A DNA stretch of 64,000 bases from an uncultured Chloroflexia bacterium (GTDB taxonomy: Bacteria; Chloroflexota; Anaerolineae; CG2-30-64-16), in contig CAVZDU010000010.1 in the NCBI GenBank assembly GCA_963774265.1, positions 32,001-96,000 on the forward strand, written 5' to 3'. The first letter of the stretch is position 1. Each line of letters opens with the position of its first letter. Of this stretch, positions 6,949 through 27,707 are shown piece by piece. A model generated the notes under the pieces. It was not told the origin of the DNA. It did no database searches and saw only the letters and a list, made by a program, of their open reading frames with translations. A program made the position numbers and the translations under genes.

Positions 6949-7244
6949 CGAGACGCCTCCATCCGGCCGCGACCATTGACCGTTAAGATGTCTCCACGAT
7001 ACATCTGAAGCGCGTCAATTGGGGGACAAGAAAAGAAAGTGCGATGTCAAGGAGTCGTCATGCCTGCTCAAGGTCATCCCGAGAAGCGGCGCTCACGGCA
7101 GCGACCGCGCCGGGGACCGAGCAATGCACCTTCTCGCCGGCTGAGATGCGAGTTGGATTGCCCGGTGCGTCCAGTTGTGCGATAATCCCGTCGTCTTCCA
7201 GGTAACTATGCCTATCATGAACTCCACGAGGGCAGGAGCGTTTG

Positions 7245-10871: not shown

Positions 10872-11624
10872 ATGATCGTTCGCCGCATGAGCCGGTCGGA
10901 AGAAGTCGAGCGGGCGCTCCTGGATCAACTGGAGTCGCTTGCCGGTCTTGATGGTCGTCTGCCTACGGAAGCCGAGATCGCCGGGATGTTCGGCGTCAGC
11001 CGCGGCACAGTTCGCGCGGCGGTCGGAGCGTTGGCGACGCGCGGACTGGTGGTGCGGAGGCAGGGCATGGGCACCTTCCTCAACCATATCGCCCATCTGC
11101 GCAACCCCATCGACCAGGCCATCGACTTCTGCGACGTCATTGCACGCAACGGCCGCGAGCCCGGGCGCCGATTTGTCAGGACCGCCATCGAGCCTCCTGG
11201 TCCTGAGGCCGCGGCTGCGCTGGGATTGTTTGACCAGCCTGCGCTCATTCGCCATACGATCTTCACGGCAGATGGCAACCCCGTCATATACTGCGTGAAC
11301 ACGCTCCCGCTGGCTATCGTCACACCTACACTTGCGGAGCGGATCGTCGCCGACCCTGTCATCTCCGAGCCGCTTTACGACTTTCTCGAGAGGGAATGCG
11401 GCCAGCGGCTGGAGTACCACGCTTCCACGATCTGGCCGGCCCTGGCCACTGACTGCAACATGCTTGAGCCGGTCTGCCATCCGCTCTCGCCTGTGTTGGT
11501 GATCGAGGAGACCGGCTTCAACTCGAGTGCGTTGCCCATCCTGCACTCTCGTGAGATGTACCCGGATGCCTTCATGCGTTTTGAGATGATCCGACGTCGA
11601 GGCCGCTCCGTTGAGTGCAACTGA
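10872..11624 (+). CDS. GntR-family (HutC/UTRA type) transcriptional regulator
   Basis: RLPTEAEIAGMFGVSRGTVRAAV...RRQGMGTF winged HTH and a UTRA-like C-terminal domain. Confidence 0.9.
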   Translation: MIVRRMSRSEEVERALLDQLESLAGLDGRLPTEAEIAGMFGVSRGTVRAAVGALATRGLVVRRQGMGTFLNHIAHLRNPIDQAIDFCDVIARNGREPGRRFVRTAIEPPGPEAAAALGLFDQPALIRHTIFTADGNPVIYCVNTLPLAIVTPTLAERIVADPVISEPLYDFLERECGQRLEYHASTIWPALATDCNMLEPVCHPLSPVLVIEETGFNSSALPILHSREMYPDAFMRFEMIRRRGRSVECN

Positions 11625-12861
11625 CGCAGCGGCGCAACTCACGCCGACCGCGCTGCGTCGCGACGAGGTTGGTCTGCTCGCGCGTATCTTGCCGGCCCGT
11701 CTGCTGCTGAACGCCCAGTTTCGCTTGGTCTATCCATTTTTGCCCGCTATTGCGCGCGGCCTCGGCGTGCCGCTTGAAACCGCAGCACTACTCATCGCGT
11801 TTCGCGCGGCCTTCGGCGCGATCAGCCCCTTGTTTGGCCTCCTCGCTGACCGGATCGGGCGCAAGCCGCTGATGGTCGTGGGCGTGGCAGCCCTGGTTCT
11901 TGGCGCGGTCGTGGTGGCCTCTGGCCAGGGGTTCGGCGTCGTCTTGCTCGGCTTTGGACTGTTGGGCATCGCGCAGTCGGCCTATGATCCCGCCATGCAG
12001 GCTTATGTCAGTGACGTCGTGCCGCAGGAGAGGCGAGGCCGTGCCCTGGGCATTGTGGAACTTTCCTGGGCTGGATCCTGGCTGATCGGTGTGCCCGCGA
12101 CCGGCTTCCTGATGGCACGCTGGGGGTGGCAATCGCCTTTCGTAGCGATCGCGGTTCTGGGTTTTTTGTGCGTCTTGCTGACGTTGACCATCAGGGAAGT
12201 AGTGCGTCCTCACCTGCACTACGTTGCACGCAGCGAGGCGCAAGCGTCGACTACGCCACTTCGTGGCTCTGCTGAGAATGCTGGGCTGCCTGGTGCCGTG
12301 CTGCCCCGGCCGGTTGTCTTCGCCCTCGCAGCCAGTGCGCTGATTCTCTTTGCCAACGAAACCCTTTTTCTCGTCTACGGCGTCCTCATGGAGGAGCGCT
12401 TCGGCCTGACGCTGGGTGCATTGGGCGTGGCCTCGATCGTGGTCAGCCTGGCGGAGTTGACTGGCGCGAGCGCGGTCGTGGCCTTGGCCGATCGGATGGG
12501 CAAGCGCCGGTCGCTGATCATTGGCTTGTTGTTCAACGCAGTGTGCTTTGCCCTGCTGCCGCTCACTGGCGTTGCCCTGCCCATGGCCCTGGCGGGGCTT
12601 GCCGTCGTCGCGCTGACGTCCGAGTTTTCGGTCGTGACCTCGATACCCTTGCTTTCCGGACTGGCCGATCACTCACGCGGACTGGTCATGGCGTTGCGGA
12701 CCGCCCTCATGTGGGGTATGGTCATCATCGCTTCATTCGTCGCACCCCGGCTGTGGCAAGCGTTCGGTCTGCCAGCAGTGGCGGCAACGTCAGCGGCTTC
12801 CGTTCTGCTGGCCGCGCTGATCGTGTGGCGCGGCATCCAGTCGGACACTCTTTCACTCTGA
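11611..12861 (+). CDS. MFS transporter
   Basis: About 12 hydrophobic segments, motif A GLLADRIGRK repeated as ADRMGKRR, and ERRGRALG. Confidence 0.9.
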   Translation: MSATDAAAQLTPTALRRDEVGLLARILPARLLLNAQFRLVYPFLPAIARGLGVPLETAALLIAFRAAFGAISPLFGLLADRIGRKPLMVVGVAALVLGAVVVASGQGFGVVLLGFGLLGIAQSAYDPAMQAYVSDVVPQERRGRALGIVELSWAGSWLIGVPATGFLMARWGWQSPFVAIAVLGFLCVLLTLTIREVVRPHLHYVARSEAQASTTPLRGSAENAGLPGAVLPRPVVFALAASALILFANETLFLVYGVLMEERFGLTLGALGVASIVVSLAELTGASAVVALADRMGKRRSLIIGLLFNAVCFALLPLTGVALPMALAGLAVVALTSEFSVVTSIPLLSGLADHSRGLVMALRTALMWGMVIIASFVAPRLWQAFGLPAVAATSAASVLLAALIVWRGIQSDTLSL

Positions 12862-12900
12862 TTCGCACATCACGTATCACCACCCAAGGAGGCGTTGTAC

Positions 12901-14273
12901 ATGCGTAGCAACTGGTTACCCGAGATCGTCAAGCGGGCGCAATCCGGTCCCTACATGAAGGAGTCCGACTTTGACCTGAAACTGACCCGGCGCATCAAGG
13001 AGTTGGTCCGGGAGAAGGGCATCAAGTACGATGCCAGTAACCTGTGCCCGGCGGACGACGACATGGCCGATCGCGTCTGGGAAGCGGGCCTGCAACTCTT
13101 CGTCGAGATGGGCGCATACTGCCAGTCCACCGAGCGCTGCATCAGATTCACGCGCGCGACGAAGTGTTCGAGCTTCTGCGCCAGGAGCCGGGCGCGGTGA
13201 CACTCGGCACGGGCAAAGACGCGGTGGTGATGCGGCATCGCGGGGTCGAGGATACCCAACGCGCGATCATGCACTCCGGTCCCACCGGTCTGCCCAGCAG
13301 CGAGAAGCACCATCCGTTGATCCTGCTCTCCTGCGCACAGGAGCCGTTGGTCGACTGCCTCGGCGCAGGCTCCGTCTCCACGTATTTCGGCGAGAAGATC
13401 CTGCCGGGCACACCGCTGGAAATTCTCGGCGCGCGCCGCGATGCCTCAGTGGCACGCGAGGCGGTCCGCATGGCTGGTCGCCCTGGCATGCACATTAATG
13501 ATGTCGCAGTGCCTCTTACGTGTGCGGGCAAGATGGCGGCGTGCGATCCCCAGACCGGCCTGCGGCCCTCCGACGGGTTCCTGGTCTCCCAAATGGTCGA
13601 GCTGAAGACGGACTTCGACCAGCTCTCGCGCGTCGCCTATCTGAAAAGCGTCGGCATGGTGAACGTGGACCTGATGACGCCGCTGATCGGCGGCGTGGGC
13701 GGCGCGGCGCCCGGAACGGCGGTGGTCTCAGTGGCAGATCACCTGCTGGGCGTGGTGCTCTACGACTCCGACTATCACATGTTCTCGCTGACCCACCTGC
13801 ACTACGTGAATAACACTGATCCGCTGGGTCTGTGGGTGGAGTCGATGGTCGGACAGGCGCTGGCGCGCAACAGCAAGATCGTGACGCTGAACGATATCTA
13901 CGTCGTCTCCGGCCCCGGCACGAAGGAACTGTTCTACGAATGCGCAGCAGGAGCGGTCGTCACGACTGTCTGCGGATTCAACATGCAGGGCGCGGGCACC
14001 ACGGGTGGCTTCTTCGCCGATCGTGTGACCGGCCTGGAGGCGCGCTTTATCGCCGAGGCGTCGCGCGCGTCGCTGGGCCTGACCCGTCAGGACGCAGCCC
14101 AACTCGTGCAGCAGATTCTGCCTCGCTACCAGGCGACCATCACCAGCCCGAACCGCGGCCGGCCGTTCAATGAGGTGTACAACGTCGAAACCGTGCAGCC
14201 CACTGCGGAGTGGCTCGACATGTACTATGCCGTGAAGGAAGACCTGCGTGGCATGGGCTTGAAGCTGGCGTAG
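12901..14273 (+). CDS. mtmB: Monomethylamine:corrinoid methyltransferase (MtmB)-family protein lacking pyrrolysine, copy 1 (one apparent indel near 13155)
   Basis: ADRVWEAG, FTRDEV, LGTGKDAV, SGPTG, MAGRPGM, SQMVELKTD, GPGT, TGLEARF, FNEVYNVETVQPTAEW and LRGMGL match the MtmB pattern. The Pyl-equivalent codon is AAT (13497-13499). AAGGAGG RBS. There is an extra GC in a CG dinucleotide run. The symbol denotes family, not proven substrate. Confidence 0.85.
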
Positions 14274-14302
14274 CCCGGCCCATTATCTTAGGAGCAGACC
14301 AA

Positions 14303-14962
14303 ATGAGCATTTCTGATGACATCAAGAGCCGCCTTTCCAATGCGCTCATCGACGGCGACGCGGACCTTGCCGAGGAGGCCACGGTCGAGGCGCTGGGGGC
14401 CGGTGCGGATCCGGTTGCGCTCATCAACGACGTCATGATCCCGGCGTTGACGGTGGTTGGTGACCAATTCCAACGCGGCGAGGTTTTCCTGCCCGAGTTG
14501 ATGATGGCGGGCGATGCGGCGCAACGCGTGTCCAATCACGTTGAGGCGGCCATCGTAGCGCAGGGTAAGACCACCGAGCCGAAGGGCACGGTGGTGATCG
14601 GCACCGTCATGGGTGACATCCACGACATCGGCAAGAACATTGTGGTGACTATGCTCAAGGCGCACGGTTTCAAAGTCGTGGACCTGGGCCGCAATGTCAC
14701 ACCGAGCACCTTCCTGACCGCCGGGCAGGAGAATAGGGCGGACGTCATCGCCATGTCATCCCTGATGACGACCACCCGGCCCATGATCGAGAACACCATC
14801 AATCTCTTCGGCGAAGTCGGCGCGCGCGATAAGTTCAAGATGATCGTGGGCGGCGGCTGCGTGACCGAAGAGTGGGCTGCGACCCTCGGCGTGGACGGCT
14901 ATTCGCCTGATGCAGTGGGCGCGGTCGAGCTGTGCAAGAAGTTCTCTGCCCGGGTGTCTTGA
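14303..14962 (+). CDS. Methyltransferase cognate corrinoid (B12-binding) protein 1
   Basis: N-terminal cap (GEVFLPELMMAG) plus GDIHDIGKNIV (DxHxxG), DLGRNV, SSLMTTT and VGGG. Confidence 0.93.
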   Translation: MSISDDIKSRLSNALIDGDADLAEEATVEALGAGADPVALINDVMIPALTVVGDQFQRGEVFLPELMMAGDAAQRVSNHVEAAIVAQGKTTEPKGTVVIGTVMGDIHDIGKNIVVTMLKAHGFKVVDLGRNVTPSTFLTAGQENRADVIAMSSLMTTTRPMIENTINLFGEVGARDKFKMIVGGGCVTEEWAATLGVDGYSPDAVGAVELCKKFSARVS

Positions 14963-14987
14963 CAATGTCCGTGTGGCCGCATATAGT
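14959..14987 (+). promoter_or_regulatory. Near-consensus internal sigma70 promoter overlapping the stop codon of corrinoid protein 1
   Basis: TTGACA (14959-14964), 17 bp spacer, TATAGT (14982-14987). Confidence 0.65.
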
Positions 14988-15034
14988 GGGGCGCAACTCC
15001 CTTTCTGCGGTCCTCTCTTTTTGGCAGGTGACCT

Positions 15035-15718
15035 ATGGATCAATCAGGCAATCAGTCGTCGGAGATGCGGGCTCGTCTCCGAAGCGCAATCGAGGGACTG
15101 GATGAGGCCGACGCGGTAGCCCTTGCTCGCGAGGCGCTGGCGGCCGGTCTGTCGCCGCTGGACTTCTTCAGGGCGGTGATTGAGCCGGAGCTGACCGCGA
15201 TCGGCGACGCCTTTTCCCGGCTTGAGGTCTTCTTGCCCGACCTGATGCGTGCGGGCGTCATCGTCAAGGCCGTGCAGAGCGAGGTGCTGGAGCCCGCCAT
15301 TCGACAGTCGGGCGGCGCCAGCACTTCGGAAGGTGCGGTGGTGATCGGCACGGCCCAGGGCGACATTCACGACATCGGCAAGAATATGGTTGCCCTGATG
15401 CTGCAGGTCAATGGCTTCCGGGTGACCGATCTGGGAACGAATGTGTCGACGCAAGCGGTTCTTGACGCCGCGCGGCGGGAGAACGCGGATATCATCGCGA
15501 TGTCATCGCTGCTCACGACGTCCCTTCCCTTCGTCAAGGATGTGTTGGCACGGCTGGACGCTGCGGGCGAGCGGAAGCGGTTCATGGTGATTGCAGGCGG
15601 CGCGCCGGTGACGGCGGAGTGGTCGCAAGCCGCGGGGCTGGACGGATTTGCGGAAGATGCTGTGGAAGCCGTGTCCATGTGTCGCGGCCTGATGGCGCGG
15701 CGCAAGGGGGCGGCATGA
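15035..15718 (+). CDS. Methyltransferase cognate corrinoid (B12-binding) protein 2
   Basis: LEVFLPDLMRAG, GDIHDIGKNMV, DLGTNV, SSLLTTS and GGAPVT. Confidence 0.93.
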   Translation: MDQSGNQSSEMRARLRSAIEGLDEADAVALAREALAAGLSPLDFFRAVIEPELTAIGDAFSRLEVFLPDLMRAGVIVKAVQSEVLEPAIRQSGGASTSEGAVVIGTAQGDIHDIGKNMVALMLQVNGFRVTDLGTNVSTQAVLDAARRENADIIAMSSLLTTSLPFVKDVLARLDAAGERKRFMVIAGGAPVTAEWSQAAGLDGFAEDAVEAVSMCRGLMARRKGAA

Positions 15719-17097
15719 GAAACACTACCCGTTTACTCGACGTGCTTGACCGGGCCGAAACCGGTCCGATCGTCGAGGAGCTCCAATGGGATATGCAGAT
15801 CGTGCCGCACGCCGTGATGGGCCTTCTGGCCGAATACAAGATCAAGATGCCCGCCGTAGCCGAGTCTGTGGTGACCACAGATGATGCCCTGGCGGATCGG
15901 CTCTTCGAGGCCGGCTTCCGCCTTGCCGAGCAGCTCGGCGCGTTCTGTGTCAGCACCAGCCGGCGGATCCAATTCACCCGCGAGGAGATTCGAGCGGCTT
16001 TGGAGGTCGCGCCGGTCGAAGTGACCATCGGTGAGGGCAACGACCGGGTCACGGAACGTAAGCGGAAGGTCGAGGACCGCCTGCCGCCGTTCATCAAGGG
16101 TGGCGGGGTCGGTACGCCCCTTCCGGAGGACCTCTATCTGCCGGTCACACAGTCCTACGCGCAGGAGCCGTTGATCGATGCGGTCATCAACTGCACATTG
16201 AGCCACGTTTATGGCCGTGAGCTGCGCAGCCGGACGCCCTGGGAGGTGCTGGCTGCATGGCATGAGATCGAGCTGTCCAAGGCGGCATGTAAGCGCGCGG
16301 GCCGGCCGGGCCTGGCCCTGGGCTGCGTAGAGAACGCGGTCTCGGAGATCGGCGAGTTATCCGGCACGTCGCACGGCGGCTTCAGCACCCAGGATTGGCA
16401 TCACATCGCCATGATCTCAGAGTTCAAGACCGATTACATGGCGCTGAGCAAGCTGGCGCACCTGGTGCGCACCGGCAGCGTGATCCACGCCTTCTATAAC
16501 ACCATCTACGGCGGCTCATGCGGCGGGCGGGATGGCATGGCGCTGGCGATCGTCTCGGGCTGCATCCTGCTTCAGATGCTCTACATGACCAATACGCACT
16601 CGGTGTCGCCCGCGCATCCCTTTTATGACAACGACACGACGCCGGAGATCCTCCAGGCCATCAGCCTGGCCCAGCAGGCGCTGGCGCGCAATTCCCGGCT
16701 GATGACCGACGTGGTGATCACCCCTGTGGGTGGTCCCGGCACGAAGACGCTGCTCTACGAGTGCGCGGCGATGGCGATCATGTCGGCAGCCTCGGGCGCG
16801 ACCGGCCTGATCGGCCCGCGCTCCGCAGCCGGCGTCAATATCGCGCACGTGTCAGGGCTGGAGGCGCGTTTCACGGCCGAGGTGGCGCGTGCGGCATCCG
16901 GCATGTCGCGCGGCGATGCCGATGGCATCGTCCGCCTGCTGGTGGACCTGTACAAGCCTGACCTGAACAAGCGGCCCAAGGGCCAATCGTTCCAGGAGGT
17001 GTATGATGTGGTGACGGTCAAGCCGCGGTCCGCGTGGCTTGAGACGTACGAACAGGTGAAGGGCGAGCTCCGGCATATGGGATTGCCGCTCGCTTGA
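15715..17097 (+). CDS. mtmB: MtmB-family methyltransferase lacking pyrrolysine, copy 2
   Basis: ADRLFEAG, IQFTREEI, GGGVGTP, SYAQEP, TPWEVLAA, AGRPGLALGCVE, EFKTD, GPGTKTLLYE, SGLEARF, FQEVYDVVTVKP and MGL. The Pyl-equivalent codon is GGC (16321-16323). The ATG overlaps the previous stop (ATGA). Confidence 0.9.
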   Translation: MRNTTRLLDVLDRAETGPIVEELQWDMQIVPHAVMGLLAEYKIKMPAVAESVVTTDDALADRLFEAGFRLAEQLGAFCVSTSRRIQFTREEIRAALEVAPVEVTIGEGNDRVTERKRKVEDRLPPFIKGGGVGTPLPEDLYLPVTQSYAQEPLIDAVINCTLSHVYGRELRSRTPWEVLAAWHEIELSKAACKRAGRPGLALGCVENAVSEIGELSGTSHGGFSTQDWHHIAMISEFKTDYMALSKLAHLVRTGSVIHAFYNTIYGGSCGGRDGMALAIVSGCILLQMLYMTNTHSVSPAHPFYDNDTTPEILQAISLAQQALARNSRLMTDVVITPVGGPGTKTLLYECAAMAIMSAASGATGLIGPRSAAGVNIAHVSGLEARFTAEVARAASGMSRGDADGIVRLLVDLYKPDLNKRPKGQSFQEVYDVVTVKPRSAWLETYEQVKGELRHMGLPLA

Positions 17098-17129
17098 AAC
17101 GTGCACATACGCACATATAGGAGGAGAAC

Positions 17130-18199
17130 ATGTTCAATCGAGTGATGGTCGTGCTCATGGTCGTTGCGCTGGTCCTAACGGCATGCGCGCCGGCCGCTGC
17201 CCCCACGCAAGCGCCTGCACAGGCCGCGCCAACCACGGCCCCTGCTGCGCCCGCGCCAACCAAGGCGCCTGAAGCAGCCGCTCCCGCGGCAGACAAGGGC
17301 AGCCTGGCCGTAATTCTGACCGGCCCTTGGGACGACAACTCCTGGAACGAGGCGGGGTACACCGCCGCGCAGGAACTCGGCAAGCAGGGCGTGAAGATCG
17401 CTTACTCTGAAAACGTGTCCGATGCCGATGCGCCGCGCGTGCTCCGCGAGTATGCCGACAAGGGCTTCCAGATGATCATCGCACACTCCTTTAGCTTCCA
17501 GGACGCCACGTTCCAGGTGGCGACGGAGTACCCGAAGGCCAACTTCGCCTGGGGTGGCGGCATCAAGAAAACCGCCAAGAACGTCGCCGACTATGATCAG
17601 CCGTTCTATCAGGCAGCCTTTCCCGTCGGCGTTATCGCGGGCCACATGAGCAAGACGGGCAAGCTGGGAGCGCTTTATGGCTTCGACATCCCGGTGTGCC
17701 ACGCGATGGGCGAGGCGCTGCTGGCCGGCGCCAAGACCGTCAACCCGAATGCGCAATTGATCGTGACAGCGGTGGGCGACTGGGTGGACGTGGCTAAGGC
17801 TAAGGAAGCCGCGCTGGCGCAGGCCGACGCGGGCGTCGACTTCTGGGTCGAATGTGGTGAGGGCCCGGCTCTGGGCACCATCGAGGCAGCTAAGGAACGC
17901 GGTGGCTATGTAACCGGCTACGTCGGTGACATGACTGAGAACGGTCCCGATGTCGTCCTGACGAACATCATGTGGGACCTGGTGCCCATGTTCAGCAAGA
18001 TGCTCGAGCAGACCCTCGACGGTTCGTTCGACAACCCATGGTACAACTACGGTGTGCCCCAGGGGGCATTGAAGATCAAGTACAACGATGCCTTGAAGAG
18101 CAAGATCCCCCCGAGGCGCTGGCTGCCGCGGAGAAGGTTTTTGAGGATATTAAGTTGGGCAAGTTCGAAGTGCCCTTCGTGGGCGAAGCAGCGAAGTAG
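17130..18199 (+). CDS. BMP-family (purine/nucleoside-type) ABC transporter substrate-binding lipoprotein (indel near 18110)
   Basis: Lipobox LTAC, Ala/Pro/Thr linker, GPWDDNSWNEAGY, HSFSF, SKTGKLG and GDWVD. The true C-terminus (PEALAAAEKVFEDIKLGKFEVPF) is in the frame of ORF 17972-18199. Confidence 0.88.
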
Positions 18200-18240
18200 C
18201 ATCGCAGCGCAAGGGCACACCTTGCGCTAAGTCGGAGTAA

Positions 18241-18342
18241 GCCACAGAGGACGCAGTGCGCACGGAGATCAGGAGAGACCAGCCGGGCAGGACCCCTGCT
18301 CGTTTCTTGCACCATCTCTGAGTTCTCAGTGCCCTCTGTGGC
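18241..18342. repeat. REP-like imperfect inverted repeat between the binding-protein and ATPase genes
   Basis: GCCACAGAGG...GAGAT and ATCTC...CCTCTGTGGC arms. Confidence 0.6.
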
Positions 18343-18369
18343 TTCGATCCGTGCAGGAGGCGTTCTGCG

Positions 18370-19916
<1,547 letters not shown>

Positions 19917-19920
<4 letters not shown>

Positions 19921-20991
19921 CGGCAGTCAAGATCGAGCGGAGCCGTACTGCGCAGGATGGCGCTCCCGCCTGGCTGCTCACCCTTGGCGCACCGCTGATC
20001 GGTGTGGCTGCAGGCCTGCTCATTGGCGCGCTATTAATCCTGCTTGCCGGCGCAGACCCGATCAAAGCGTACGCGGCCATGATGCGCGGTGCGTTCGGGG
20101 GCCGGCGGCAGATCGAAGAGACGCTGCTGAAGACTGCGCCGCTGCTGCTCATGGGGTTGGGGCTGACTGCGGCATTCCGCGGCGCGCGTATGGAACATCG
20201 GCGGCGAAGGGCAGTACTATATGGGAGCCCTGGCCGGCGGCGCCGTCGCGCTGAATTTTGCTGACCAATGGCCGCGGGTGATCTTGATCGTGGTTATGCT
20301 CCTGGCAGGCGTGCTCGGCGGCGCGCTATGGGCTGCGCTGGCGGCTCTTTTCAAGATCCGTCGCGGCATCAACGAAATCATCAGCACCCTCATGCTAAAC
20401 TACATCGCAATCCTCTTTATGGAGTACATGGCGCGCGGTCCTCTTCAGGAACCGGGAGGCTATCTGCCTGAGAGCGCCCAGTTGGCGGCTGCCGCTCGCA
20501 TGCCCGCGCTCTTTGGGAGCCGAATTCACGTTGGCGTCATCATCGCGCTGCTGATGATACCTGTTGTATATGCCCTGCTCTGGTCGACCCCCCTGGGATT
20601 TCGCCTGCGTGCCGTGGGCTCGCGATCGAGCGTTGCACGTTATGCGGGCATCAAAGTCGAGCGGCTTATCTTGTTTGTGCTCATGTTTTCCGGTGGGCTG
20701 GCAGGCTTAGCAGGCATCATCGAGGTGAGTTCGCTGCACACGCGGCTCAAGGGGAGTATCTCTGGCGATTATGGCTTCAGCGGCATCCTGGTGGCGCTCC
20801 TGGGCCGGATGCACCCCGTTGGTGTAGCGGTCGCAGCTGTCTTCTTTGCAGCGTTGACGATCGGCGCACAATCCATGCACGTGGTCTACCAGTTGCCGGT
20901 CACCCTTGCAGGCGCGGTGCAGGCGGTTGTCGTGCTTTGCGTCCTGGCTGCCGACGCCATCGCCCACGGCAAGTTTCACAGGGGGCAGTGA
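19917..20991 (+). CDS. Nucleoside ABC transporter permease 1 (indel near 20185)
   Basis: WNIGGEGQ is restored across the frame break. INEIISTLMLNY, GFRLRAVG and GYGF/DYGFSGILVALLG motifs. Confidence 0.88.
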
Positions 20992-21980
20992 TGGATTGGA
21001 GCCTTGTCCTCAACTGGACCTTTGTGATTGCGCTCTTCACCGCTGCCATTCGCCTGGCTGTGCCGGTGCTGCTCGCCACACTCGGTGAAATCGTGACCGA
21101 GCGTTCGGGCGTCATGAACCTGGGACTGGACGGAGTGATGGTTGTGGGCGGTGTCTCTGGCTTCCTGGTTGCCTACTTCCTGCAAAGCGGCCCCTTGGCG
21201 GGGCTCAGCCAATGGCTGGGTCTCCTCGCAGGGGCGGCAGCAGGTATGCTCATGGGGGTCATCGTCGCGGTTTTCGCGGTGACCCTACGCGCGGACCAGG
21301 TGATCACCGGTGTGACGCTGGTCGTGTTCGGCCATGGGCTCGCCAACTACATCTACCGCCAGCAGTTCAGTTCGCTGACCGCGCGCACGAACGGCCTGCC
21401 GCCCTATGAGGTGCCCCTGCTCAGCCGGATCCCGGTCGTGGGCGATATCCTCTTCAAGCACGATGCGACCGTGTACATCACGGCGTTGCTGGTGGTCGTG
21501 GTTTGGTTCTTCCTGTCGCGCACAACCTGGGGCCTGAAGATCCGTTCGGTCGGTGAGAATCCTGCCGCGGGTGAAACATCGGGCCTCAAAGTTGGCGCGG
21601 TGCGCTATGCCGCGGCGCTAATCGGCACAGCGCTGGCCGGCTTCGGTGGTGCGGTGCTCACCGTGGTGCAATTGCGCATGTTTCGCGAGGGCATCATGGG
21701 CGGCCGTGGCTGGATCGCCGTCGCGCTGGTAATCTTTGCGCGCTGGAAGCCCGGTCTGGCACTCGTGGGCGCGCTGCTGTTCGGCCTGGCCGACGCGGTT
21801 CAGTATCGTATTCAGGCGCTCAGCCAGGTCGGGCGCGGGGCAGGGACCATTCCCTACGAGTTCTTGCTCATGCTACCATATGTCCTGACCATCCTGGCGC
21901 TCCTGGCTCGCAGCAATCGCCGGGGACAGACGCAGGCGCCGGAGGTGTTGGGCCGACCGTACGTCAAGGGTGAGCTCTAA
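20991..21980 (+). CDS. Nucleoside ABC transporter permease 2
   Basis: LGEIVTERSGVMNLGLDG, ADQVITG, GLKIRSVGENP, GRGWIAVALVIF, LPYVLT and APEVLGRPY. Confidence 0.93.
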   Translation: MDWSLVLNWTFVIALFTAAIRLAVPVLLATLGEIVTERSGVMNLGLDGVMVVGGVSGFLVAYFLQSGPLAGLSQWLGLLAGAAAGMLMGVIVAVFAVTLRADQVITGVTLVVFGHGLANYIYRQQFSSLTARTNGLPPYEVPLLSRIPVVGDILFKHDATVYITALLVVVVWFFLSRTTWGLKIRSVGENPAAGETSGLKVGAVRYAAALIGTALAGFGGAVLTVVQLRMFREGIMGGRGWIAVALVIFARWKPGLALVGALLFGLADAVQYRIQALSQVGRGAGTIPYEFLLMLPYVLTILALLARSNRRGQTQAPEVLGRPYVKGEL

Positions 21981-22015
21981 TTCAACGCCGAATTGCAGCA
22001 ATGGAGTAAGCAAAA

Positions 22016-22828
22016 GTGACTAGAATCAATGAATACCACCAGCCACCGAACCTCGTAGAGGCCCTGGCTTTGCTGGGTCGGAGCCATCCCATCACACGCC
22101 CCCTGGGCGGCGGCACGCACTATCGCCGGGGTTGCGGCTGGCCAGAGGCCGTTGTCGATTTGTCGGCCCTGAAACTCGACGGCGTCACACAAGGGGAAAA
22201 CGCATGGGCGATCGGGGCGACCGCGACGCTCGAACGGCTTGCGGCTGCCGAAGAGCTTCCCGCCGCGCTGCGCCGGGCTGCGCTCCGGCAGGCGCCGCGC
22301 AACAGCCGCCAGCGCGCAACGGTCGGCGGCGCGATTGCCACGAGGGACTCTGGCACGCTGCTCGTCTGTCTGCTTGCGCTCGATGCCCGGCTCATGGTGG
22401 AGCCCGCCAGCCGGCTCATTCCGCTTCAGTCATATCTGCAAGAGCCTGAGGAGAGCGGTCACCTGATCACCGCCTGTTTTCTTCCCAACGGACGCACGTG
22501 TGCATTCGAGGAGATCAGCCGGACGCCTTCAGACGCGCCGATCCTCGCCGTTGCGGTTGGGGCGGAAGTCGGAGCGACCGATTTGCGCGGCGTTCTAGCT
22601 GCCGCTGGCGGCGCGGACCAACCGGCTGCCGTAGTGCCCGGCGCCGTGCAATTTCTTCAAGCGGACGTTGACCACGAGATCGCTGCGTTGGCGGCGGCCA
22701 TGACTCAAGCGCCGTGGCGCGACGACGGGCGAGGCACTGCGGCATACCGCACGGCCATGACGCCTATCCTGTTGAGGCGTGCCATGGAGTCGCTTCTGGC
22801 CTCGCAGGAGGTGTCCCATGCAGGTTAA
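22016..22828 (+). CDS. FAD-binding subunit of a xanthine-dehydrogenase-family molybdoenzyme (YgfM/CoxM-like)
   Basis: YHQPPNLVEAL, LGGGT, IGATATL, RATVGG and DDGRGTAAYR. Directly upstream of the Mo subunit. Confidence 0.82.
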   Translation: MTRINEYHQPPNLVEALALLGRSHPITRPLGGGTHYRRGCGWPEAVVDLSALKLDGVTQGENAWAIGATATLERLAAAEELPAALRRAALRQAPRNSRQRATVGGAIATRDSGTLLVCLLALDARLMVEPASRLIPLQSYLQEPEESGHLITACFLPNGRTCAFEEISRTPSDAPILAVAVGAEVGATDLRGVLAAAGGADQPAAVVPGAVQFLQADVDHEIAALAAAMTQAPWRDDGRGTAAYRTAMTPILLRRAMESLLASQEVSHAG

Positions 22829-25800
22829 TGTTCATGTCAACGGCCAGCCGCTGGTGTTGGCCGGCGAACCCGGCATCACTCTGCTGGACGCACTGCGTGG
22901 AGCCGGTTTCTTCAGCGTCAAGCGCGGCTGCGACCATGGTGAGTGTGGCGCATGTGCGATATTGCTCGATGGCAAGCAGGTGAATTCGTGCCACGTATTG
23001 CTGGCCCAGGTCGATGGCTGCTGCATCCAGACCGCTGAGGGACTGGGTGAGGCCGCGGAGCAGGGATGGCGGCACACGGCCGGGCTACACCCGCTGCAAC
23101 AGGCATTTATCGAGTTGGGCGCGGTCCAGTGTGGCTACTGCACGCCGGCCCAATTGTTGGCAGCGCAGGCGTTGCTTGATCGTAAGGGCTATGGGGGAAC
23201 TGATCCGCAGCCGGTCAGCGAGGCCGAAGTGCGCGAGGCTCTGTCAGGTGTGCTCTGCCGCTGCACCGGCTACGCCAAACCGGTCGCGGCGGTGTTGAAG
23301 GCGGCCGCGCGTCTGCGCGGCGAAGAGCCACTGGCCGGCGGTGGCACGGCGCAGCCTAAGGATGCGGGCGGCATACCGGTTGCCCTCGATTTTGCAGGGG
23401 GCGAACCTCGCACCGAGGGCCTGCCCGGCCCTGAGCCGGCCCGGGGCGGCGTCATCACCCGGACGGAGGCGCCTCCCGTGCTGTTGGTTGCAGCCGTCAG
23501 CGAGGAGCTTCGCGTAGTCGGCAAGTCCGTCACAAAGGTCGACGCCGCCAAACTTAGCCAGGGCAAGCCGGCATTCACCGACGATCTCGAGATGCGCGGC
23601 ATGTTGATCGGCAAGATCATGCACAGCCCGGTGGCCCATGCGCGTATCAAGTCCATTGACGTCACGGCTGCACGTCAACTGCCTGGCGTAGCCGCTGTGC
23701 TAACGCATAAGGACTTGCCCCGCGTCGCCCACTCTACCGCCGGTCAAACGCATCCGCTGCCTTCTCCGCTGGATACGTTCTCGCTGGACGAGAAAGTGCG
23801 CTTCGTCGGCGACCGCGTGGCGCTCATTGCGGCCGAATCTGAAGAGATCGCTCTGGCCGCGATGGAGCTCATCCAGGTCGAGTACGAGGAGCTTCCCGCG
23901 ATCATCGACCCGCGCGATGCACTCAAGCCCGGCGCATCGATCATCCATGACGAGCCGGACTTTGTGGATTTCGCAGAATCGGATCGGACGCGCAATCTGG
24001 CTGCTCATATCTTCGTGGACATCGGGAACGTGGACCAGGGCTTTGCGGAGGCCGATCACATCTTCGAGGGCGAGTATTTCGTTCCAAAGGTGCAGCAGGC
24101 CTCCATCGAACCACACGTAGTCATCACCTATTGGGACGAGGACGACCGGTTGGTGGTCCGCACCTCCACGCAAGTGCCGTTCCATGCACGGCGCATCCTG
24201 GCGCCCATCCTGGGCCTGCCTGTCAAGCGCATCCGCGTCATCAAGCCTCGTGTCGGCGGTGGGTTCGGCGGCAAGCAGGAAGTGCTCATCGAAGACGCAG
24301 CCGCTCACTTGACCATCGCAACCGGCCGGCCCGTTCGCTTGGAGTATACGCGCGAGGAGGAATTCATCGCCGCGCGCTCTCGTCACCCGATGCGGGTGCG
24401 ACTCAAGACTGGTGTGACGGCGGATGGTGTGATCACGGCCAACGAGATGCACGTCCTTTCAGATACCGGCGCCTATGGGTCGCACGCAATGACGGTGGCC
24501 GGCAACACCGGACACAAGGCAATGGCTCTGTATGTCGGTGATGGCCCGTACCGGCAAAACCCCAATATCCGTTTCACGGCAGAGGTGGTTTATACGAATA
24601 CGGCGCCGTCCGGCGCATTTCGCGGTTACGGTGTGCCGCAGGGTTACTTCCCCTTGGACACACAGATGGAGCGCATTGCCCGGGCGCTCGAGATGGATCC
24701 GCTGGCGTTCCGCCTGAAGAACGCGGTGCGCGCGGGTGAGGCCCAGCCATTCTCCAAGGCATGGTCCGAAGGCCGTGAACCGGTGCCCGAGTATATCGAG
24801 ACGTGCGCCCTGGAAGAATGCGCGCATCGCGGGGCAGAGCTGATCGGGTGGCGCGAGAAGCGGGGAAACAGGAATTGGCACGCGGTGCCCGGCCGTCCCA
24901 ATTTGCGCCGCGGTGTCGGCGCCGCCTTGGCCATGCAGGGCACGGCCATCCCCTACATCGACATGGGCGGTGCGTCGCTCAAGATGAACGACGACGGCTC
25001 CTTCAACCTGCTTGCCGGCGCCACGGATATCGGCACCGGCTCAGATACGATATTGGCACAGATGGTCGCCGAGACGGTCGGTTGCAATGTCGAGGACATC
25101 GTCGTCTACTCATCGGACACTGACTTTACCCCCTTCGATGTTGGGGCGTATGCCTCGTCAACCACGTATGTCTCAGGCGCAGCCGCCACACGGGCCGCGC
25201 AACAAGTTGCCGAGCAGATTCGCGAAGTGGCAGCAGCATTGCTGGGAGGTGAAGTGACGCCCGCTGAGATCCGGTTGGCCGACCGCCGCGCCTGGGCGCC
25301 GGATGGGCACAGCGTCACGCTGGAAGACGTCGCTTTGCAGTCGCTGCACAAGGCCAATCAGCGCCAGATCATGGCCGTCGCCTCGTTCAATTCGCCCGTG
25401 TCTCCGCCGCCTTTCGCGGCCCAGTTTGCCGAGGTGACGGTCGACATCGAGACCGGCGAAGTTCGTGTGCAGAAGTTCGTCACCGTTATGGACTCCGGCG
25501 TAATCGTCAACCCGGTGGCCGCGACCGGCCAGGTGGAGGGCGCGGTGTCTCAGTCGCTCGGCTATGCCTTGTGCGAGGAGATGCCCTATGATAGTGCGGG
25601 CCGGCCTCTCATGCATGATCTGCGGGACTATCACATCTTCACCGCGGATGAGATGCCTGAACTCGTCACTGAGTTCGTGCCGACCGTCGAGCCCACGCAT
25701 CCATATGGTGTGAAAGCGGTGGGTGAAGTGCCCATGGATGGCGTGGGTCCGGCAATCGCTAACGCCATCTACGACGCAGTTGGCGCCTGGATCAACGAGT

Positions 25801-25850
25801 TGCCGGCCACGCCTGAGCGCGTGTGGCGCGCCATGCACGCAAGTTTTTGA
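22818..25850 (+). CDS. Xanthine-dehydrogenase-family molybdopterin oxidoreductase with fused 2x[2Fe-2S] domain (XdhD/YgfN-like)
   Basis: GCDHGECGAC...NSC and QCGYCTP...CRCTGY Fe-S motifs. VGGGFGGKQ, GAFRGYGVPQ, GAYASS, GQVEG and KAVGE (catalytic Glu) in the Mo domain. AGGAGG RBS. Confidence 0.93.
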   Translation: MQVNVHVNGQPLVLAGEPGITLLDALRGAGFFSVKRGCDHGECGACAILLDGKQVNSCHVLLAQVDGCCIQTAEGLGEAAEQGWRHTAGLHPLQQAFIELGAVQCGYCTPAQLLAAQALLDRKGYGGTDPQPVSEAEVREALSGVLCRCTGYAKPVAAVLKAAARLRGEEPLAGGGTAQPKDAGGIPVALDFAGGEPRTEGLPGPEPARGGVITRTEAPPVLLVAAVSEELRVVGKSVTKVDAAKLSQGKPAFTDDLEMRGMLIGKIMHSPVAHARIKSIDVTAARQLPGVAAVLTHKDLPRVAHSTAGQTHPLPSPLDTFSLDEKVRFVGDRVALIAAESEEIALAAMELIQVEYEELPAIIDPRDALKPGASIIHDEPDFVDFAESDRTRNLAAHIFVDIGNVDQGFAEADHIFEGEYFVPKVQQASIEPHVVITYWDEDDRLVVRTSTQVPFHARRILAPILGLPVKRIRVIKPRVGGGFGGKQEVLIEDAAAHLTIATGRPVRLEYTREEEFIAARSRHPMRVRLKTGVTADGVITANEMHVLSDTGAYGSHAMTVAGNTGHKAMALYVGDGPYRQNPNIRFTAEVVYTNTAPSGAFRGYGVPQGYFPLDTQMERIARALEMDPLAFRLKNAVRAGEAQPFSKAWSEGREPVPEYIETCALEECAHRGAELIGWREKRGNRNWHAVPGRPNLRRGVGAALAMQGTAIPYIDMGGASLKMNDDGSFNLLAGATDIGTGSDTILAQMVAETVGCNVEDIVVYSSDTDFTPFDVGAYASSTTYVSGAAATRAAQQVAEQIREVAAALLGGEVTPAEIRLADRRAWAPDGHSVTLEDVALQSLHKANQRQIMAVASFNSPVSPPPFAAQFAEVTVDIETGEVRVQKFVTVMDSGVIVNPVAATGQVEGAVSQSLGYALCEEMPYDSAGRPLMHDLRDYHIFTADEMPELVTEFVPTVEPTHPYGVKAVGEVPMDGVGPAIANAIYDAVGAWINELPATPERVWRAMHASF

Positions 25851-25856
25851 CATAAG

Positions 25857-25887
25857 GACCTTCGAGGTCTCCGAGACCTCGAAGGTC
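25857..25887. repeat. REP-like palindrome
   Basis: GACCTTCGAGGTCTC-C-GAGACCTCGAAGGTC, with 15-bp perfect arms. Confidence 0.8.
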
Positions 25888-25908
25888 TTCTCACAGGGGA
25901 CAGGTAGC

Positions 25909-27705
25909 GTGTATCGAATCGACATGGAGCCAATCGGCCGGCGCAGCGAGGTGATGCCCGGTCAAACGCTGTTGGATGCCGCCAGGCAGGGCGGCGTTGA
26001 TCTGACCGCGCTTTGCGGTGGCGAGGGCTGGTGCCACGGCTGCGAGGTGCGGGTCATTGAAGGCCAGCTATCTCCCGTGACGGCGTCTGAACAAGCGGCT
26101 CTGGGCGCGGAGCAACTCGCCCAGGGTTTTCGACTGGCGTGTCAGGCGGAACCGCTCGGCCATGTGAAGATCGACATCCCGCCTGAATCGTTGGCCACGC
26201 AGCAGCGGCTCCAGATCGAAGGGCAGGAGGCCGAGACCGCGGTCGATCCGGTGGTCCGGCAAGTTGATGTAACGGTTTCTGCTGCTACATTGCACGATCT
26301 GCGCGCCGACACGGTTCGCCTCCGGGAGGCACTGGATGAGGACGTTCGGTTTGCGTTGCCCGTGCTCCAGACTCTTTCACCCAAGCTGCGAGAGCAAGAC
26401 TGGACGGCTCGCTTGGCTGTGCGGGATGGCGAGGTCGTCGCTCTCGCACCGGCCGGTGTGCGGCTGCTCGGGTTGGCCGTCGACGTTGGCACGACAAAGC
26501 TGGCGGCATACCTGGTGGATCTGGAGACCGGCCGCACAGTCGCGAAAGGCGGCGCGCCGAACCCGCAAATCGCCTACGGCGAGGATGTCGTCAGCCGCAT
26601 CAGCTACACGATGACACACACCCACGGCGCAGAGACGCTACAGAGCCGTCTGATCGAGACGCTCAACGAGCTTGCCGAAAGCCTGTGCAGCCAGGCCGGG
26701 CGCACGACTCAGCACATCGTAGATGCCGTCATCGTGGGCAACACTGCGATGCAACATCTTTTTGCGCGGCTGCCTGCCAGCCAGCTTGCGTTGGCGCCGT
26801 ACGTGGCCGCGGCCAGTGAGGCGCTTTCCTTGCGAGCTTCGGAGCTCGGTCTGCATTTTGCCCCGGCGGCGTACGTCTACCTCCCTCCGAACATCGCAGG
26901 TTATGTTGGCGGTGATCACGTTGCCATGGCGTTGGGCACCCACGCGTGGGAGACTGTAAAGACCATCGCGGCGCTGGATATTGGCACCAACACCGAAGTC
27001 ACGGTGACGCGCGGCGGTCGCTCGTGGTGCTGTTCGTGTGCGTCGGGTCCTGCCTTTGAAGGGGCGCACATCCGTGATGGCATGCGCGCCGCGCCTGGCG
27101 CTATCGAAAAGGTGCGGTTTGCTGACGGCAAGGTGCACCTCAAGACCATCGATGGGCAGCCCCCGGTGGGCATCTGCGGTTCTGGCATCATGGATATCGT
27201 GAGTGAGCTCGTGCGGACAGGCACGATCGATCGCAAGGGCGCATTCCAGGCTGACGCACCGGGCGTAAGCCATGATGGCGCGCTGCTCGGCTTCAACCTT
27301 GCTCCTGCGGAGGCAACGGGACATGGCCGGGCGATCAGGGTGGACCGGAAGGACATCAACGAAATCCAGTTGGCGAAAGCCGCCATCCGCACCGGCGTAG
27401 AAATCCTGTTATCCGAGGCGGGGGCAACACACGACGACATCGACGCGTTCATTGTGGCTGGCGCGTTTGGCACCTATCTGGATCTGGACAGCAGCATCCG
27501 GGTGGGAATGTTCCCGCCGTTGCCGCTGCACAAATTCTCTCAGGTGGGCAATGCTGCCGGCACGGGCGCGCGCCAATTGCTCGTCTCGCGTGCGCGGCGG
27601 GCTGACGCAAGTCGGCTCGCGTCCCGCGTCACTTACGTGGAACTGACGATCCACCCGGATTTTTCAAAGCGCTACATGTCGGCGCTCTACTTCGCAAGGT
27701 CGTGA
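25909..27705 (+). CDS. ATP-dependent reductive activator of corrinoid proteins (RACo/RamA-like; N-terminal [2Fe-2S] plus ASKHA domain, DUF4445)
   Basis: CGGEGWCHGC...RLACQ ferredoxin domain, then DVGTT, NPQIAYGEDVVSRI, VGNTAM, GYVGGD, DIGTNTE, CASGPAFEG, GICGSG, QLAKAAI, AGAFG and GNAAG. Confidence 0.92.
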   Translation: MYRIDMEPIGRRSEVMPGQTLLDAARQGGVDLTALCGGEGWCHGCEVRVIEGQLSPVTASEQAALGAEQLAQGFRLACQAEPLGHVKIDIPPESLATQQRLQIEGQEAETAVDPVVRQVDVTVSAATLHDLRADTVRLREALDEDVRFALPVLQTLSPKLREQDWTARLAVRDGEVVALAPAGVRLLGLAVDVGTTKLAAYLVDLETGRTVAKGGAPNPQIAYGEDVVSRISYTMTHTHGAETLQSRLIETLNELAESLCSQAGRTTQHIVDAVIVGNTAMQHLFARLPASQLALAPYVAAASEALSLRASELGLHFAPAAYVYLPPNIAGYVGGDHVAMALGTHAWETVKTIAALDIGTNTEVTVTRGGRSWCCSCASGPAFEGAHIRDGMRAAPGAIEKVRFADGKVHLKTIDGQPPVGICGSGIMDIVSELVRTGTIDRKGAFQADAPGVSHDGALLGFNLAPAEATGHGRAIRVDRKDINEIQLAKAAIRTGVEILLSEAGATHDDIDAFIVAGAFGTYLDLDSSIRVGMFPPLPLHKFSQVGNAAGTGARQLLVSRARRADASRLASRVTYVELTIHPDFSKRYMSALYFARS

Positions 27706-27707
27706 GA

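Follow-up and report, generated by a model that had tools for sequence, protein, structure and literature searches.

The stretch analysed here, called the window, comprises 64,000 nucleotides (nt) of contig CAVZDU010000010.1 from an uncultured bacterium of the Chloroflexota. It carries, on the + strand at positions 10872-27705, a block of genes for two MtmB-like methyltransferases, two corrinoid proteins, a BMP-type importer, a molybdenum (Mo) hydroxylase and a reductive activator, and this block is the system under study. The genome is a metagenome-assembled genome (MAG) of 5.5 Mb in 10 contigs, is 84% complete and has its close relatives in the Anaerolineae/Anaerolineales. The guanine-plus-cytosine (GC) content is steady at 0.60-0.65 throughout the window.

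All genes of the block, from GntR to RACo, are co-directional, and every gene that the earlier note had read from the letters was recovered by Pfam at the same place and in the same order. The first gene encodes a GntR/HutC-type regulator with a UTRA effector domain (10872-11624; PF00392, PF07702) and the second a transporter of the major facilitator superfamily (MFS), of the drug/H+ antiporter or efflux-like type (11611-12861; MFS_1, 141.5 bits). They are followed by MtmB-like 1 (MtmB1; 12901-14273), a putative substrate methyltransferase (MT1) with a +2 nt frameshift near 13157, by corrinoid protein 1 (Cor1; 14303-14962), which has a cap domain and a B12-binding Rossmann domain (PF02607, PF02310), by corrinoid protein 2 (Cor2; 15035-15718; PF02607, PF02310), and by a second putative MT1, MtmB-like 2 (MtmB2; 15715-17097), with an open frame of 460 residues. 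The start of MtmB2 overlaps the stop of Cor2, and only 33 nt separate the end of MtmB2 from the start of the substrate-binding protein Bmp of the BMP/PnrA family (17130-18180; PF02608, 157 bits). The Bmp gene has a -1 nt frameshift at 18106-18111, and its end is an estimate from the 349-residue orthologue of the related locus L011. The rest of the transporter consists of an ATP-binding cassette (ABC) ATPase with two ABC domains (18370-19920; ABC_tran, two stretches), permease 1 with a +1 nt frameshift near 20180 (19917-20991; BPD_transp_2) and permease 2 (20937-21980; BPD_transp_2, 113.6 bits), whose true start is probably near 20991. The FAD-binding subunit of the molybdenum hydroxylase (22016-22828; FAD_binding_5, CO_deh_flav_C) is YgfM-like in size and domains; the fused [2Fe-2S] and molybdopterin subunit (22779-25850; Fer2, Fer2_2, Ald_Xan_dh_C, MoCoBD_1, MoCoBD_2) belongs to the xanthine dehydrogenase (XDH) family and has an XdhD-like architecture. 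The block closes with a RACo-type reductive activator (25723-27705), the start of which is uncertain, as its open reading frame overlaps the Mo gene. Upstream of the block, the 8-oxoguanine-deaminase-like amidohydrolase gene reported before is present on the + strand at 7242-8600, split over four frames, with Amidohydro_1 detected in one piece and the whole traced by tblastn against the deaminase of locus L023. The gene block itself is a real observation, far beyond chance.

Both MtmB-like proteins belong to PF05369, with 263.7 bits for MtmB1 and 349 bits for MtmB2 against a cut-off of 25 bits. MtmB2 covers profile positions 4-450; MtmB1 covers positions 81-450, and the remainder is in the shifted frame, its N-terminus lying in the frame of 12901-13155. 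MtmB2 aligns over its full length (residues 7-457) with MtmB of Methanosarcina barkeri (1l2q; E value 1.3e-75), and the ESM Atlas matches are to MtmB-family clusters only. The description of the pair as pyrrolysine-free is borne out. Pyrrolysine 202 (Pyl202) of the M. barkeri enzyme stands opposite Gly in MtmB2 and Asn in MtmB1, MtmB2 is without an in-frame stop, and neither homologue qualifies as a Pyl-dependent MtmB. The loop around this site is kept within each clade, as GRPGMHI-N-DVAV in MtmB1 and GRPGLAL-G-CVEN in MtmB2. Each MT1 adjoins a corrinoid protein, so that the block holds two such pairs, as in three-component methyltransferase systems. Cor1 scores 180 bits on TIGR02370, which is under the cut-off, and its translation contains the stretch D-I-H-D-I-G, which we take to be the DxHxxG motif; Cor2 is 44% identical to Cor1. 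MtmB homologues were found in 44 of 401 sampled Anaerolineae genomes (E <= 1e-30), with no in-frame stop among the matches listed for those 44. One genome (G011) has 24 MtmB matches, and in some organisms the family has undergone marked expansion.

The importer is a full BMP/PnrA-family ABC set, made up of Bmp, the double-domain ATPase and two BPD_transp_2 permeases. The nearest solved relatives of Bmp are a BMP lipoprotein of Brucella (3s99), deposited with adenine (E 7.8e-31), and AtzT (6pi5; E 1.6e-28), with 7x0r ('Lbp'), for which a literature search turned up no paper, in fourth place; the nucleoside binders BmpD (E 3e-15) and PnrA (E 1e-9) are much weaker matches. The earlier note had envisaged the import of bases or nucleosides, and free bases fit better, since the nucleoside binders match at 1e-9 to 1e-15 against 1e-31 for the adenine binder. 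AtzT is described, in the available part of its report, as binding guanine with a dissociation constant of 0.11 uM and 2-hydroxyatrazine with one of 2.2 uM, and also ammeline and adenine; the ligand is sandwiched by Tyr45 and Trp194 and hydrogen-bonded by Ser97, the Phe98 backbone, Glu165, Asn218 and Asn220 (PMC6834077). These sites were mapped by hand, through a pairwise alignment, onto the intact Bmp protein of L011. Bmp keeps the aromatic sandwich (Trp65, Trp211) and the Ser-Phe pair (Ser113-Phe114) but has Val182, Met186, Cys235 and Glu237 in place of Glu165, Asn169, Asn218 and Asn220 of AtzT. Across 21 distinct orthologues (54-100% identity) the eight pocket positions do not vary, save for Leu at 186 in two of them, and these orthologues include proteins from MtmB1-only and MtmB2-only loci. 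BMP proteins from other MtmB clusters, 10 paralogues in all, share just the two Trp of this set. As the polar guanine contacts are replaced and the sandwich is kept, the pocket suggests a ligand that is planar, aromatic, less polar than guanine and possibly methyl-bearing. The altered pocket fits methyl-bearing bases and does not prove them. By the same alignments, the ligand appears to be common to the orthologous group and to differ from one paralogous cluster to the next.

The Mo enzyme has the complete domain set of the xanthine dehydrogenase family, namely 2Fe-2S, hammerhead, two domains binding the molybdenum cofactor (MoCo) and an FAD subunit. The fused subunit scores 703.1 bits on the XdhA model (cut-off 780) and 681.4 bits on the XdhD model (cut-off 1101.9), and the FAD subunit scores 72.2 bits on TIGR03312 (YgfM; cut-off 241.5). 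The XdhD/YgfM-like enzyme of the first reading therefore stands as an architecture but not as an equivalog, and its substrate is not fixed, because the cut-offs for XdhA, XdhD and YgfM are all missed. Among solved structures the Mo subunit has no close relative, the best being 4-hydroxybenzoyl-CoA reductase at 312 bits. The window deaminase matches that of L023 by tblastn in four pieces of 49-51% identity that cover residues 1-449. The 8-oxoguanine deaminase model NF006055 (cut-off 532) is passed by the cluster-linked copies of L023 (606.6 bits), L085 (686.9), L086 (683.4) and L105 (685.8), and the next-best NCBIfam models for these amidohydrolases are N-ethylammeline chlorohydrolase and TRZ/ATZ. 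RACo has all four expected Pfam domains above their cut-offs (Fer2, RACo_linker, Raco_middle, RACo_C_ter), which places it among the activases; it scores 419 bits on the AcsV model, under the cut-off, and 134 bits on the RamA model (cut-off 500). Orthologues of the GntR regulator are 87% (L011) and 74% (L012) identical, and its best NCBIfam match is PhnF, under the cut-off of that model. The NCBIfam matches of the MFS protein are all to efflux-type families, each under its cut-off.

The neighbourhood was compared in 21 non-redundant genome loci that hold an orthologue of the MtmB1 or MtmB2 clade at 58% identity or more (the window, L011-L025, L033-L035, L043 and L062); L032 and L065 were left out as duplicates of L022 and L025. 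Of the 21, 18 have genes for a BMP-type transporter; in the three that have none (L018, L019, L021) the contig breaks off no more than 2.5 kb from MtmB2. The gene order varies. It is Cor2-MtmB2-MtmB1-Cor1-Bmp in L033 and L034, MtmB1-Cor1-Bmp alone in L043 and L062, and GntR-Cor2-MtmB2-MT2(URO-D)-CobW-GntR-Bmp-ABC-permeases-deaminase in L017, L020 and L023, where MT2 denotes the methyltransferase that passes the methyl group on to its acceptor; in L035 the permeases lie upstream. The linkage of MtmB and corrinoid genes to BMP genes thus persists through several rearrangements. RACo is found in five of the 21 loci and the XDH pair after the transporter in four (the window, L011, L012 and L014); in L024 the start of an FAD gene follows the transporter. 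As a control within the family, 30 loci were taken whose MtmB is a distant Anaerolineae paralogue (30-38% identity); they contain BMP genes in one case, an XDH Mo subunit in none and an amidohydrolase in five. The neighbours there are MttB, homocysteine S-methyltransferase, SBP_bac_1 ABC, FGGY kinase and DeoC aldolase genes. Four loci of a distant MtmB clade (L037, L040, L041 and L042, from G025, G147, G107 and G211) carry amidohydrolase, CCG/FAD-oxidase, DeoC, FGGY kinase, MttB, MtmB, corrinoid protein, pterin MT2 and SBP_bac_1 ABC genes, a set pointing to a methylated compound that bears a sugar, perhaps a modified nucleoside.

When metagenomes were scanned with an alignment built from MtmB2-clade proteins, 79 loci were obtained and annotated by tblastn; 40 of them are at least 8 kb long. 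The longer loci contain a BMP-type ABC system in 30 of 40 (with the binding protein in 26), an XDH-family Mo subunit in 16 and an oxoguanine-deaminase- or SsnA-like amidohydrolase in 18. At least one of the three is present in 36 and all three in five; L080, L107, L119 and L127 have none. The GC content of the metagenome loci ranges from 0.39 to 0.69 and several lineages are therefore involved. Some of these loci overlap: L087 equals L022, L105/L144 and L115/L139 are on common contigs, and L149-151 as well as L122-125 have identical annotated gene orders. The most complete version is found in L085 and L086, as GntR-RACo-deaminase-pterin MT2-Cor2-MtmB2-MtmB1-Cor1-Bmp-ABC, and in L085 the tblastn matches of deaminase and MT2 overlap by 25 nt. 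In L115 (5682-9990) the FeS and Mo genes of an XDH-type enzyme are separated by an MtmB gene, and L105 has the order deaminase-MtmB-deaminase-FeS-Mo-MtmB-MT2-RACo beside a BMP ABC system. The Mo subunits associated with clusters of the L085/L086/L105 type score best on the PucD and XdhA models, under the cut-offs. Three contigs (L119, L121 and L126) have five or six MtmB tblastn matches each, some of which may be pieces of one gene, partly together with XDH-family subunits.

In a FastTree phylogeny of 188 homologues in 22 clades, a sample biased to MtmB2 relatives and short contigs, BMP genes accompany 25 of 35 tips of the MtmB2 clade and 18 of 23 tips of the presumed MtmB1 clade, in a tree without the window's own MtmB1 copy. 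BMP or purine-type contexts occur also in several clades at 41-50% identity, and in none of the tips of the clades partnered with homocysteine methyltransferase (9 tips) or MttB (8 tips). The earlier note had proposed that a neighbourhood not conserved in other genomes would count against it, and the linkage is retained in 18 of 21 genome loci and 30 of 40 metagenome loci. The co-occurrence that it had suggested counting is clear for the BMP ABC system; within the orthologous cluster it is confined to genus-level relatives for the XDH pair (4/21) and is limited for RACo (5/21), and XDH, RACo and deaminase genes recur in sister and paralogous clusters.

A third MtmB homologue of the same genome (G000:C2:581582-582970), with its own corrinoid protein, comes immediately after gene pieces for an XDH-type enzyme (FAD, FeS, hammerhead and MoCo). 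Next are DHO_dh/Fer4 and aldehyde:ferredoxin oxidoreductase genes, then one for an OTCase-like protein and one for an amidohydrolase that scores highest on the SsnA model (238 bits, under the cut-off). The enzymes of the reductive uric-acid pathway include XdhD-YgfM, the DHO_dh-type UacX, SsnA and the OTCase-like YgeW, according to the part of the source at hand (PMC12507026). The third homologue thus appears to sit in a cluster resembling those for reductive uricolysis, an independent hint of a purine link. The whole uricolysis-like set spans G000:C2:577054-589780 (L072:5455-18181), and DeoC and FGGY kinase genes are found upstream of it.

No MT2 was found among the block genes by Pfam, and the system is incomplete unless an MT2 is encoded elsewhere. 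The genome has four Pterin_bind genes. Two of them are candidates in trans: those at C1:972022 and C3:310369 share 46% and 43% identity with the MT2 of the sister loci, and both are in other corrinoid methyltransferase clusters. These clusters (G000:C1:972022-983307 and C3:306869-311220) combine pterin MT2, corrinoid proteins, non-Pyl MttB homologues and RACo. In sister loci L021 and L022 a pterin MT2 gene lies directly upstream of MtmB1. The model NF005719 (cut-off 259) is passed by the MT2 of L022 (260.1 bits) and of L085 (277.6 bits), and L021 and L086 carry one by similarity. A URO-D-type MT2 is found in L017, L019, L020 and L023; it is of the MtaA/CmuA family, is fused to a C-terminal thioredoxin-like domain and is followed by a CobW-family GTPase (L017:7871-10340, and likewise in L019, L020 and L023). 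The fusion is restricted to MtmB2-only loci, and the two-MtmB loci are without it, some having pterin MT2 instead. No orthologue of the URO-D and thioredoxin MT2 of the L017 kind was found in this 84%-complete genome, the best match being 26% identical. The genome has furthermore four RACo-like genes, MTHFR, formyltetrahydrofolate synthetase (FTHFS), acetyl-CoA synthase and about a dozen or more MttB-family matches.

The favoured interpretation, rated slightly better than an even chance, is that the block would carry out a B12-dependent demethylation of an imported methylated purine-type base (e.g. methylguanine or methylxanthine), with the methyl group going to tetrahydrofolate and the ring to the deaminase and the Mo hydroxylase. 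The BMP-type ABC system would import a methylated planar N-heterocycle. MtmB1 and MtmB2, predicted TIM-barrel MT1s without pyrrolysine, would each transfer a methyl group to the Co(I) of the adjoining corrinoid protein, and the two pairs may act on different methyl positions of a single compound or on a pair of related compounds. A pterin-binding MT2, encoded in trans here and within the cluster in sister genomes, would hand the methyl group to tetrahydrofolate, and RACo would re-reduce corrinoid that has slipped to Co(II). Methyltetrahydrofolate would then be oxidisable or assimilable by Wood-Ljungdahl enzymes, because the genome has MTHFR, formyltetrahydrofolate synthetase and acetyl-CoA synthase. 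The 8-oxoguanine-deaminase-like amidohydrolase would deaminate the demethylated ring, and the XdhD/YgfM-like enzyme would add or remove a hydroxyl group, leading into purine breakdown. We infer the substrate class, the direction of methyl flow, the order of the steps and the role of each MT1 from the gene content, the loss of pyrrolysine, the conserved linkage and the family assignments; methyl groups on N, O and S are indistinguishable at this level. The core of the earlier note (import, demethylation onto cobalamin, catabolism by Mo hydroxylase and deaminase) is kept as the best fit to the comparative evidence, in view of the BMP linkage, the importer's relatives, the recurring partners and the third MtmB, but is weakened by the absence of MT2 from the block. 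A broader proposal, given somewhat less than an even chance, is that the non-Pyl MtmB homologues of this superclade are widespread O2-independent, cobalamin-dependent purine demethylases, in which every paralogue would pair with a corrinoid protein and a BMP importer of its own and handle one methylated base. The candidate bases would be 7-, 1- and N2-methylguanine, methylxanthines including caffeine metabolites, and methyluric acids.

The MtmB/MtmC/RamA system of Methanosarcina (1l2q, 1nth) is similar in its full-length MT1 family, the cognate corrinoid protein alongside and an ATP-dependent activase in the cluster. The present system differs in that it is bacterial, has Gly and Asn for Pyl and a RACo-type activase with an N-terminal 2Fe-2S domain, probably uses tetrahydrofolate and not coenzyme M as acceptor, and has a purine-type and not a methanogenic context. 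The glycine betaine systems of the MtgB/MtgC/MtgA type in Desulfitobacterium and Eubacterium consist of a non-Pyl MttB MT1, a corrinoid protein, a pterin MT2 that methylates tetrahydrofolate and a RACo-type activase. They share the four-part logic, and in them too the loss of Pyl goes with a new substrate, but their MT1 belongs to PF06253 and not PF05369 and they act on quaternary amines taken up by betaine carriers. The NdmABCDE enzymes of caffeine-degrading Pseudomonas are O2-dependent Rieske monooxygenases that release formaldehyde. The net result would be the same, an N-methyl group removed from a purine ahead of ring catabolism by xanthine dehydrogenase, but here the methyl group would be kept on cobalamin and tetrahydrofolate without O2, and the likeness is functional only, as Pfam found no Rieske family in any block gene.

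The closest precedent within the family is MtqB/MtqC of Methanococcoides methylutens Q3c, published in 2026 as the first non-Pyl MtmB with a function; its substrates are tetramethylammonium and choline and its conserved pocket is formed by Met, Cys and aromatic residues, and the authors describe other non-Pyl MtmBs as enzymes of unknown function (PMC13044021, available part). It resembles the present proteins as a non-Pyl MtmB member with a corrinoid protein, and it indicates that the family has moved beyond methylamine chemistry. It differs in being archaeal, in using coenzyme M as acceptor and in acting on quaternary amines, and no BMP importer, deaminase or Mo hydroxylase is reported in the available part of that paper. 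The 1,061-sequence MtmB tree of the same paper (PMC13044021) may already hold the proteins described here in its 'unknown function' branches. The reductive uric-acid clusters (XdhD-YgfM / YgfK or UacX / SsnA / HyuA / YgeW) have a comparable fused FeS and Mo subunit with a small FAD subunit, but no corrinoid methyltransferases are described in the accessible part of the source (PMC12507026), and the Mo enzyme of the block is under the XdhD and XdhA cut-offs. A literature search that covered few subscription journals found no paper linking MtmB homologues to purine genes, nor one linking corrinoid proteins to 7-methylguanine demethylation. The claim that no characterised pathway has this make-up therefore stands for the purine link but has to be amended for the enzyme family, a non-Pyl MtmB (MtqB) having now been characterised. 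What would be new is the link to purine catabolism and the likely class of substrate.

Several observations weigh against purine demethylation. MT2 is missing from the block, and the best matches to the sister-locus MT2 in the genome itself reach only 46% and 43% identity. An XDH pair after the transporter is limited to genus-level relatives, the Mo enzyme misses its NCBIfam equivalog cut-offs, and an importer without the guanine-contact residues of AtzT is predicted to bind something other than guanine or adenine as such. In this assembly frameshifts break three block genes as well as the upstream deaminase. Related genomes are non-independent samples, and the metagenome loci were selected by their likeness to MtmB2 and annotated against our own reference set, so that other transporters, e.g. 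betaine carriers, would escape notice there. The sequencing runs matching the stretch are four DNA runs (shares 0.05-0.10) with no RNA run listed, and no expression data were found. Finally, MtqB, the sole characterised non-Pyl MtmB, acts on tetramethylammonium and choline, not on heterocycles, with slight activity on monomethylamine as well (PMC13044021, available part). For this reason the main rival is a quaternary or simple amine substrate, with the BMP importer, deaminase and XDH-like enzyme forming a separate purine-scavenging unit alongside. The second GntR gene between the MtmB2 unit and the BMP unit in L017, L020 and L023, suggestive of two regulons, points the same way. This rival is considered unlikely, as Pfam on all block genes found MFS and BMP ABC proteins only and no betaine- or choline-type transporter, the MtmB2 stop is followed so closely by the Bmp start, and the linkage survives rearrangements and recurs in paralogous clusters; the MtmB gene between XDH subunit genes in L115 and the deaminase/MT2 overlap in L085 argue against it too, as does the lack of a BMP/XDH context around distant MtmB paralogues. 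In a related scheme, which is improbable, the amidohydrolase would first free methylamine from an N-methylamino purine of the N6-methyladenine or N2-methylguanine type and the MtmB-like enzymes would use the methylamine. Alkylamine-releasing triazine hydrolases are indeed among the NCBIfam neighbours of the amidohydrolase family, and monomethylamine is the founding substrate of the MtmB family. However, Gly and Asn stand in for the Pyl with which canonical MtmB activates methylamine, no in-frame stop is seen among the matches listed for the Anaerolineae genomes with a homologue (44 of 401), and a single small product would not call for two different MT1/corrinoid pairs.

In principle, methyl transfer by corrinoids can run in either direction, and a cofactor importer beside B12 enzymes would likewise give a conserved linkage. 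The heterocycle might thus be methylated from methyltetrahydrofolate, or the importer might supply a purine or benzimidazole as the lower ligand of the corrinoid. Either is hardly probable given that catabolic partners recur (8-oxoguanine-deaminase equivalogs, XDH-family enzymes and uricolysis-type genes) and that, in the same genomes, distant MtmB and MttB systems work with corrinoid proteins and have no BMP importer. The frameshifts raise the separate question of whether the cluster is a decaying array of pseudogenes in this genome, since they affect MtmB1, Bmp, permease 1, the upstream deaminase and nadA. Indels were called against the relatives L011 and L012, whose MtmB2 is 95% and 92% identical to that of the window. 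Against both, MtmB1 has +2 nt in a CG repeat near 13157, Bmp has -1 nt in a C run near 18111 and permease 1 has +1 nt near 20180; the nadA gene has several 1-nt indels against L012. A short-read contig is identical to the window save for one extra C at 18106, which restores the base missing from Bmp, and a 96%-alike contig is without the extra 2 nt at 13151 in MtmB1; the read-contig pieces listed cover these two indels and not position 20180. As the read contigs differ from the window there, the indels near 13157 and 18111, at least, are probably assembly errors. The orthologues in L011 are intact (455 residues for MtmB1, 349 for Bmp and 357 for permease 1), as are those in L012, and genes of essential pathways (nadA, acetyl-CoA synthase) are split too in this 10-contig MAG, which is typical of uncorrected long-read indels. 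Real decay is therefore very unlikely, and the block genes are treated as functional because the read contigs point to assembly errors and the L011 orthologues are intact. Indels of this kind are also seen at G000:C1:21503-21963; the pattern is that of an unpolished long-read assembly, and gene calls on this genome can be expected to come out fragmented.

Methylated purines are released wherever RNA and DNA degrade, and caffeine and its relatives reach wastewater and sediments. Aerobes strip the methyl groups from purines with oxygenases. To our knowledge no enzyme has been described for anaerobic purine demethylation, or for the anaerobic turnover of caffeine or modified nucleobases. If the B12-dependent demethylation of purine-type bases is correct, a large and nearly uncharacterised branch of MtmB would gain a function, and corrinoid methyltransferase chemistry would reach N-heterocycles in addition to amines and aryl ethers. 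C1 metabolism would be tied to anaerobic purine catabolism in abundant uncultured Chloroflexota, and anaerobes would harvest methyl groups, through tetrahydrofolate and the Wood-Ljungdahl pathway, in addition to ring nitrogen. A 2026 preprint, seen in part, reports methane formation from the N-methyl groups of caffeine in anoxic sediment, with an Anaerolineae lineage among the enriched taxa and the enzymes not identified (10.64898/2026.01.06.697959).

Scans for promoters and terminators gave results at chance level (4 promoter-like sites where 4.1 would be expected, and 13 resembling terminators where the expectation is 10.9); a sigma-70-like promoter match of 11/12 lies between the corrinoid genes at 14959-14987. 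The flanking genes on the + strand belong to NAD synthesis. Upstream are nadC for quinolinate phosphoribosyltransferase (8680-9534; QRPTase_N and QRPTase_C) and a frameshifted nadA for quinolinate synthase (9650-10580; NadA profile positions 38-157 of 295 within one frame), and downstream is nadB for L-aspartate oxidase (27702-29276; TIGR00551, 467.8 bits against a cut-off of 452.75), which overlaps the stop of RACo. These genes prompted consideration of trigonelline or N-methylnicotinamide as substrates, with a nicotinate-dehydrogenase-like Mo enzyme. The idea was rejected as the principal interpretation, since L012 has the nad genes upstream whereas L011, which by MtmB2 identity is the nearer of the two, has a different Mo enzyme gene in their place, and since the Mo subunit is best on XdhA and XdhD and nicotinate dehydrogenase (3hrd) ranks below many solved enzymes. 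The nad genes are probably incidental flanks outside the system. The 17-kb block separates nadC-nadA from nadB, and its placement, common to L012 and not L011, resembles an insertion into a nad operon.

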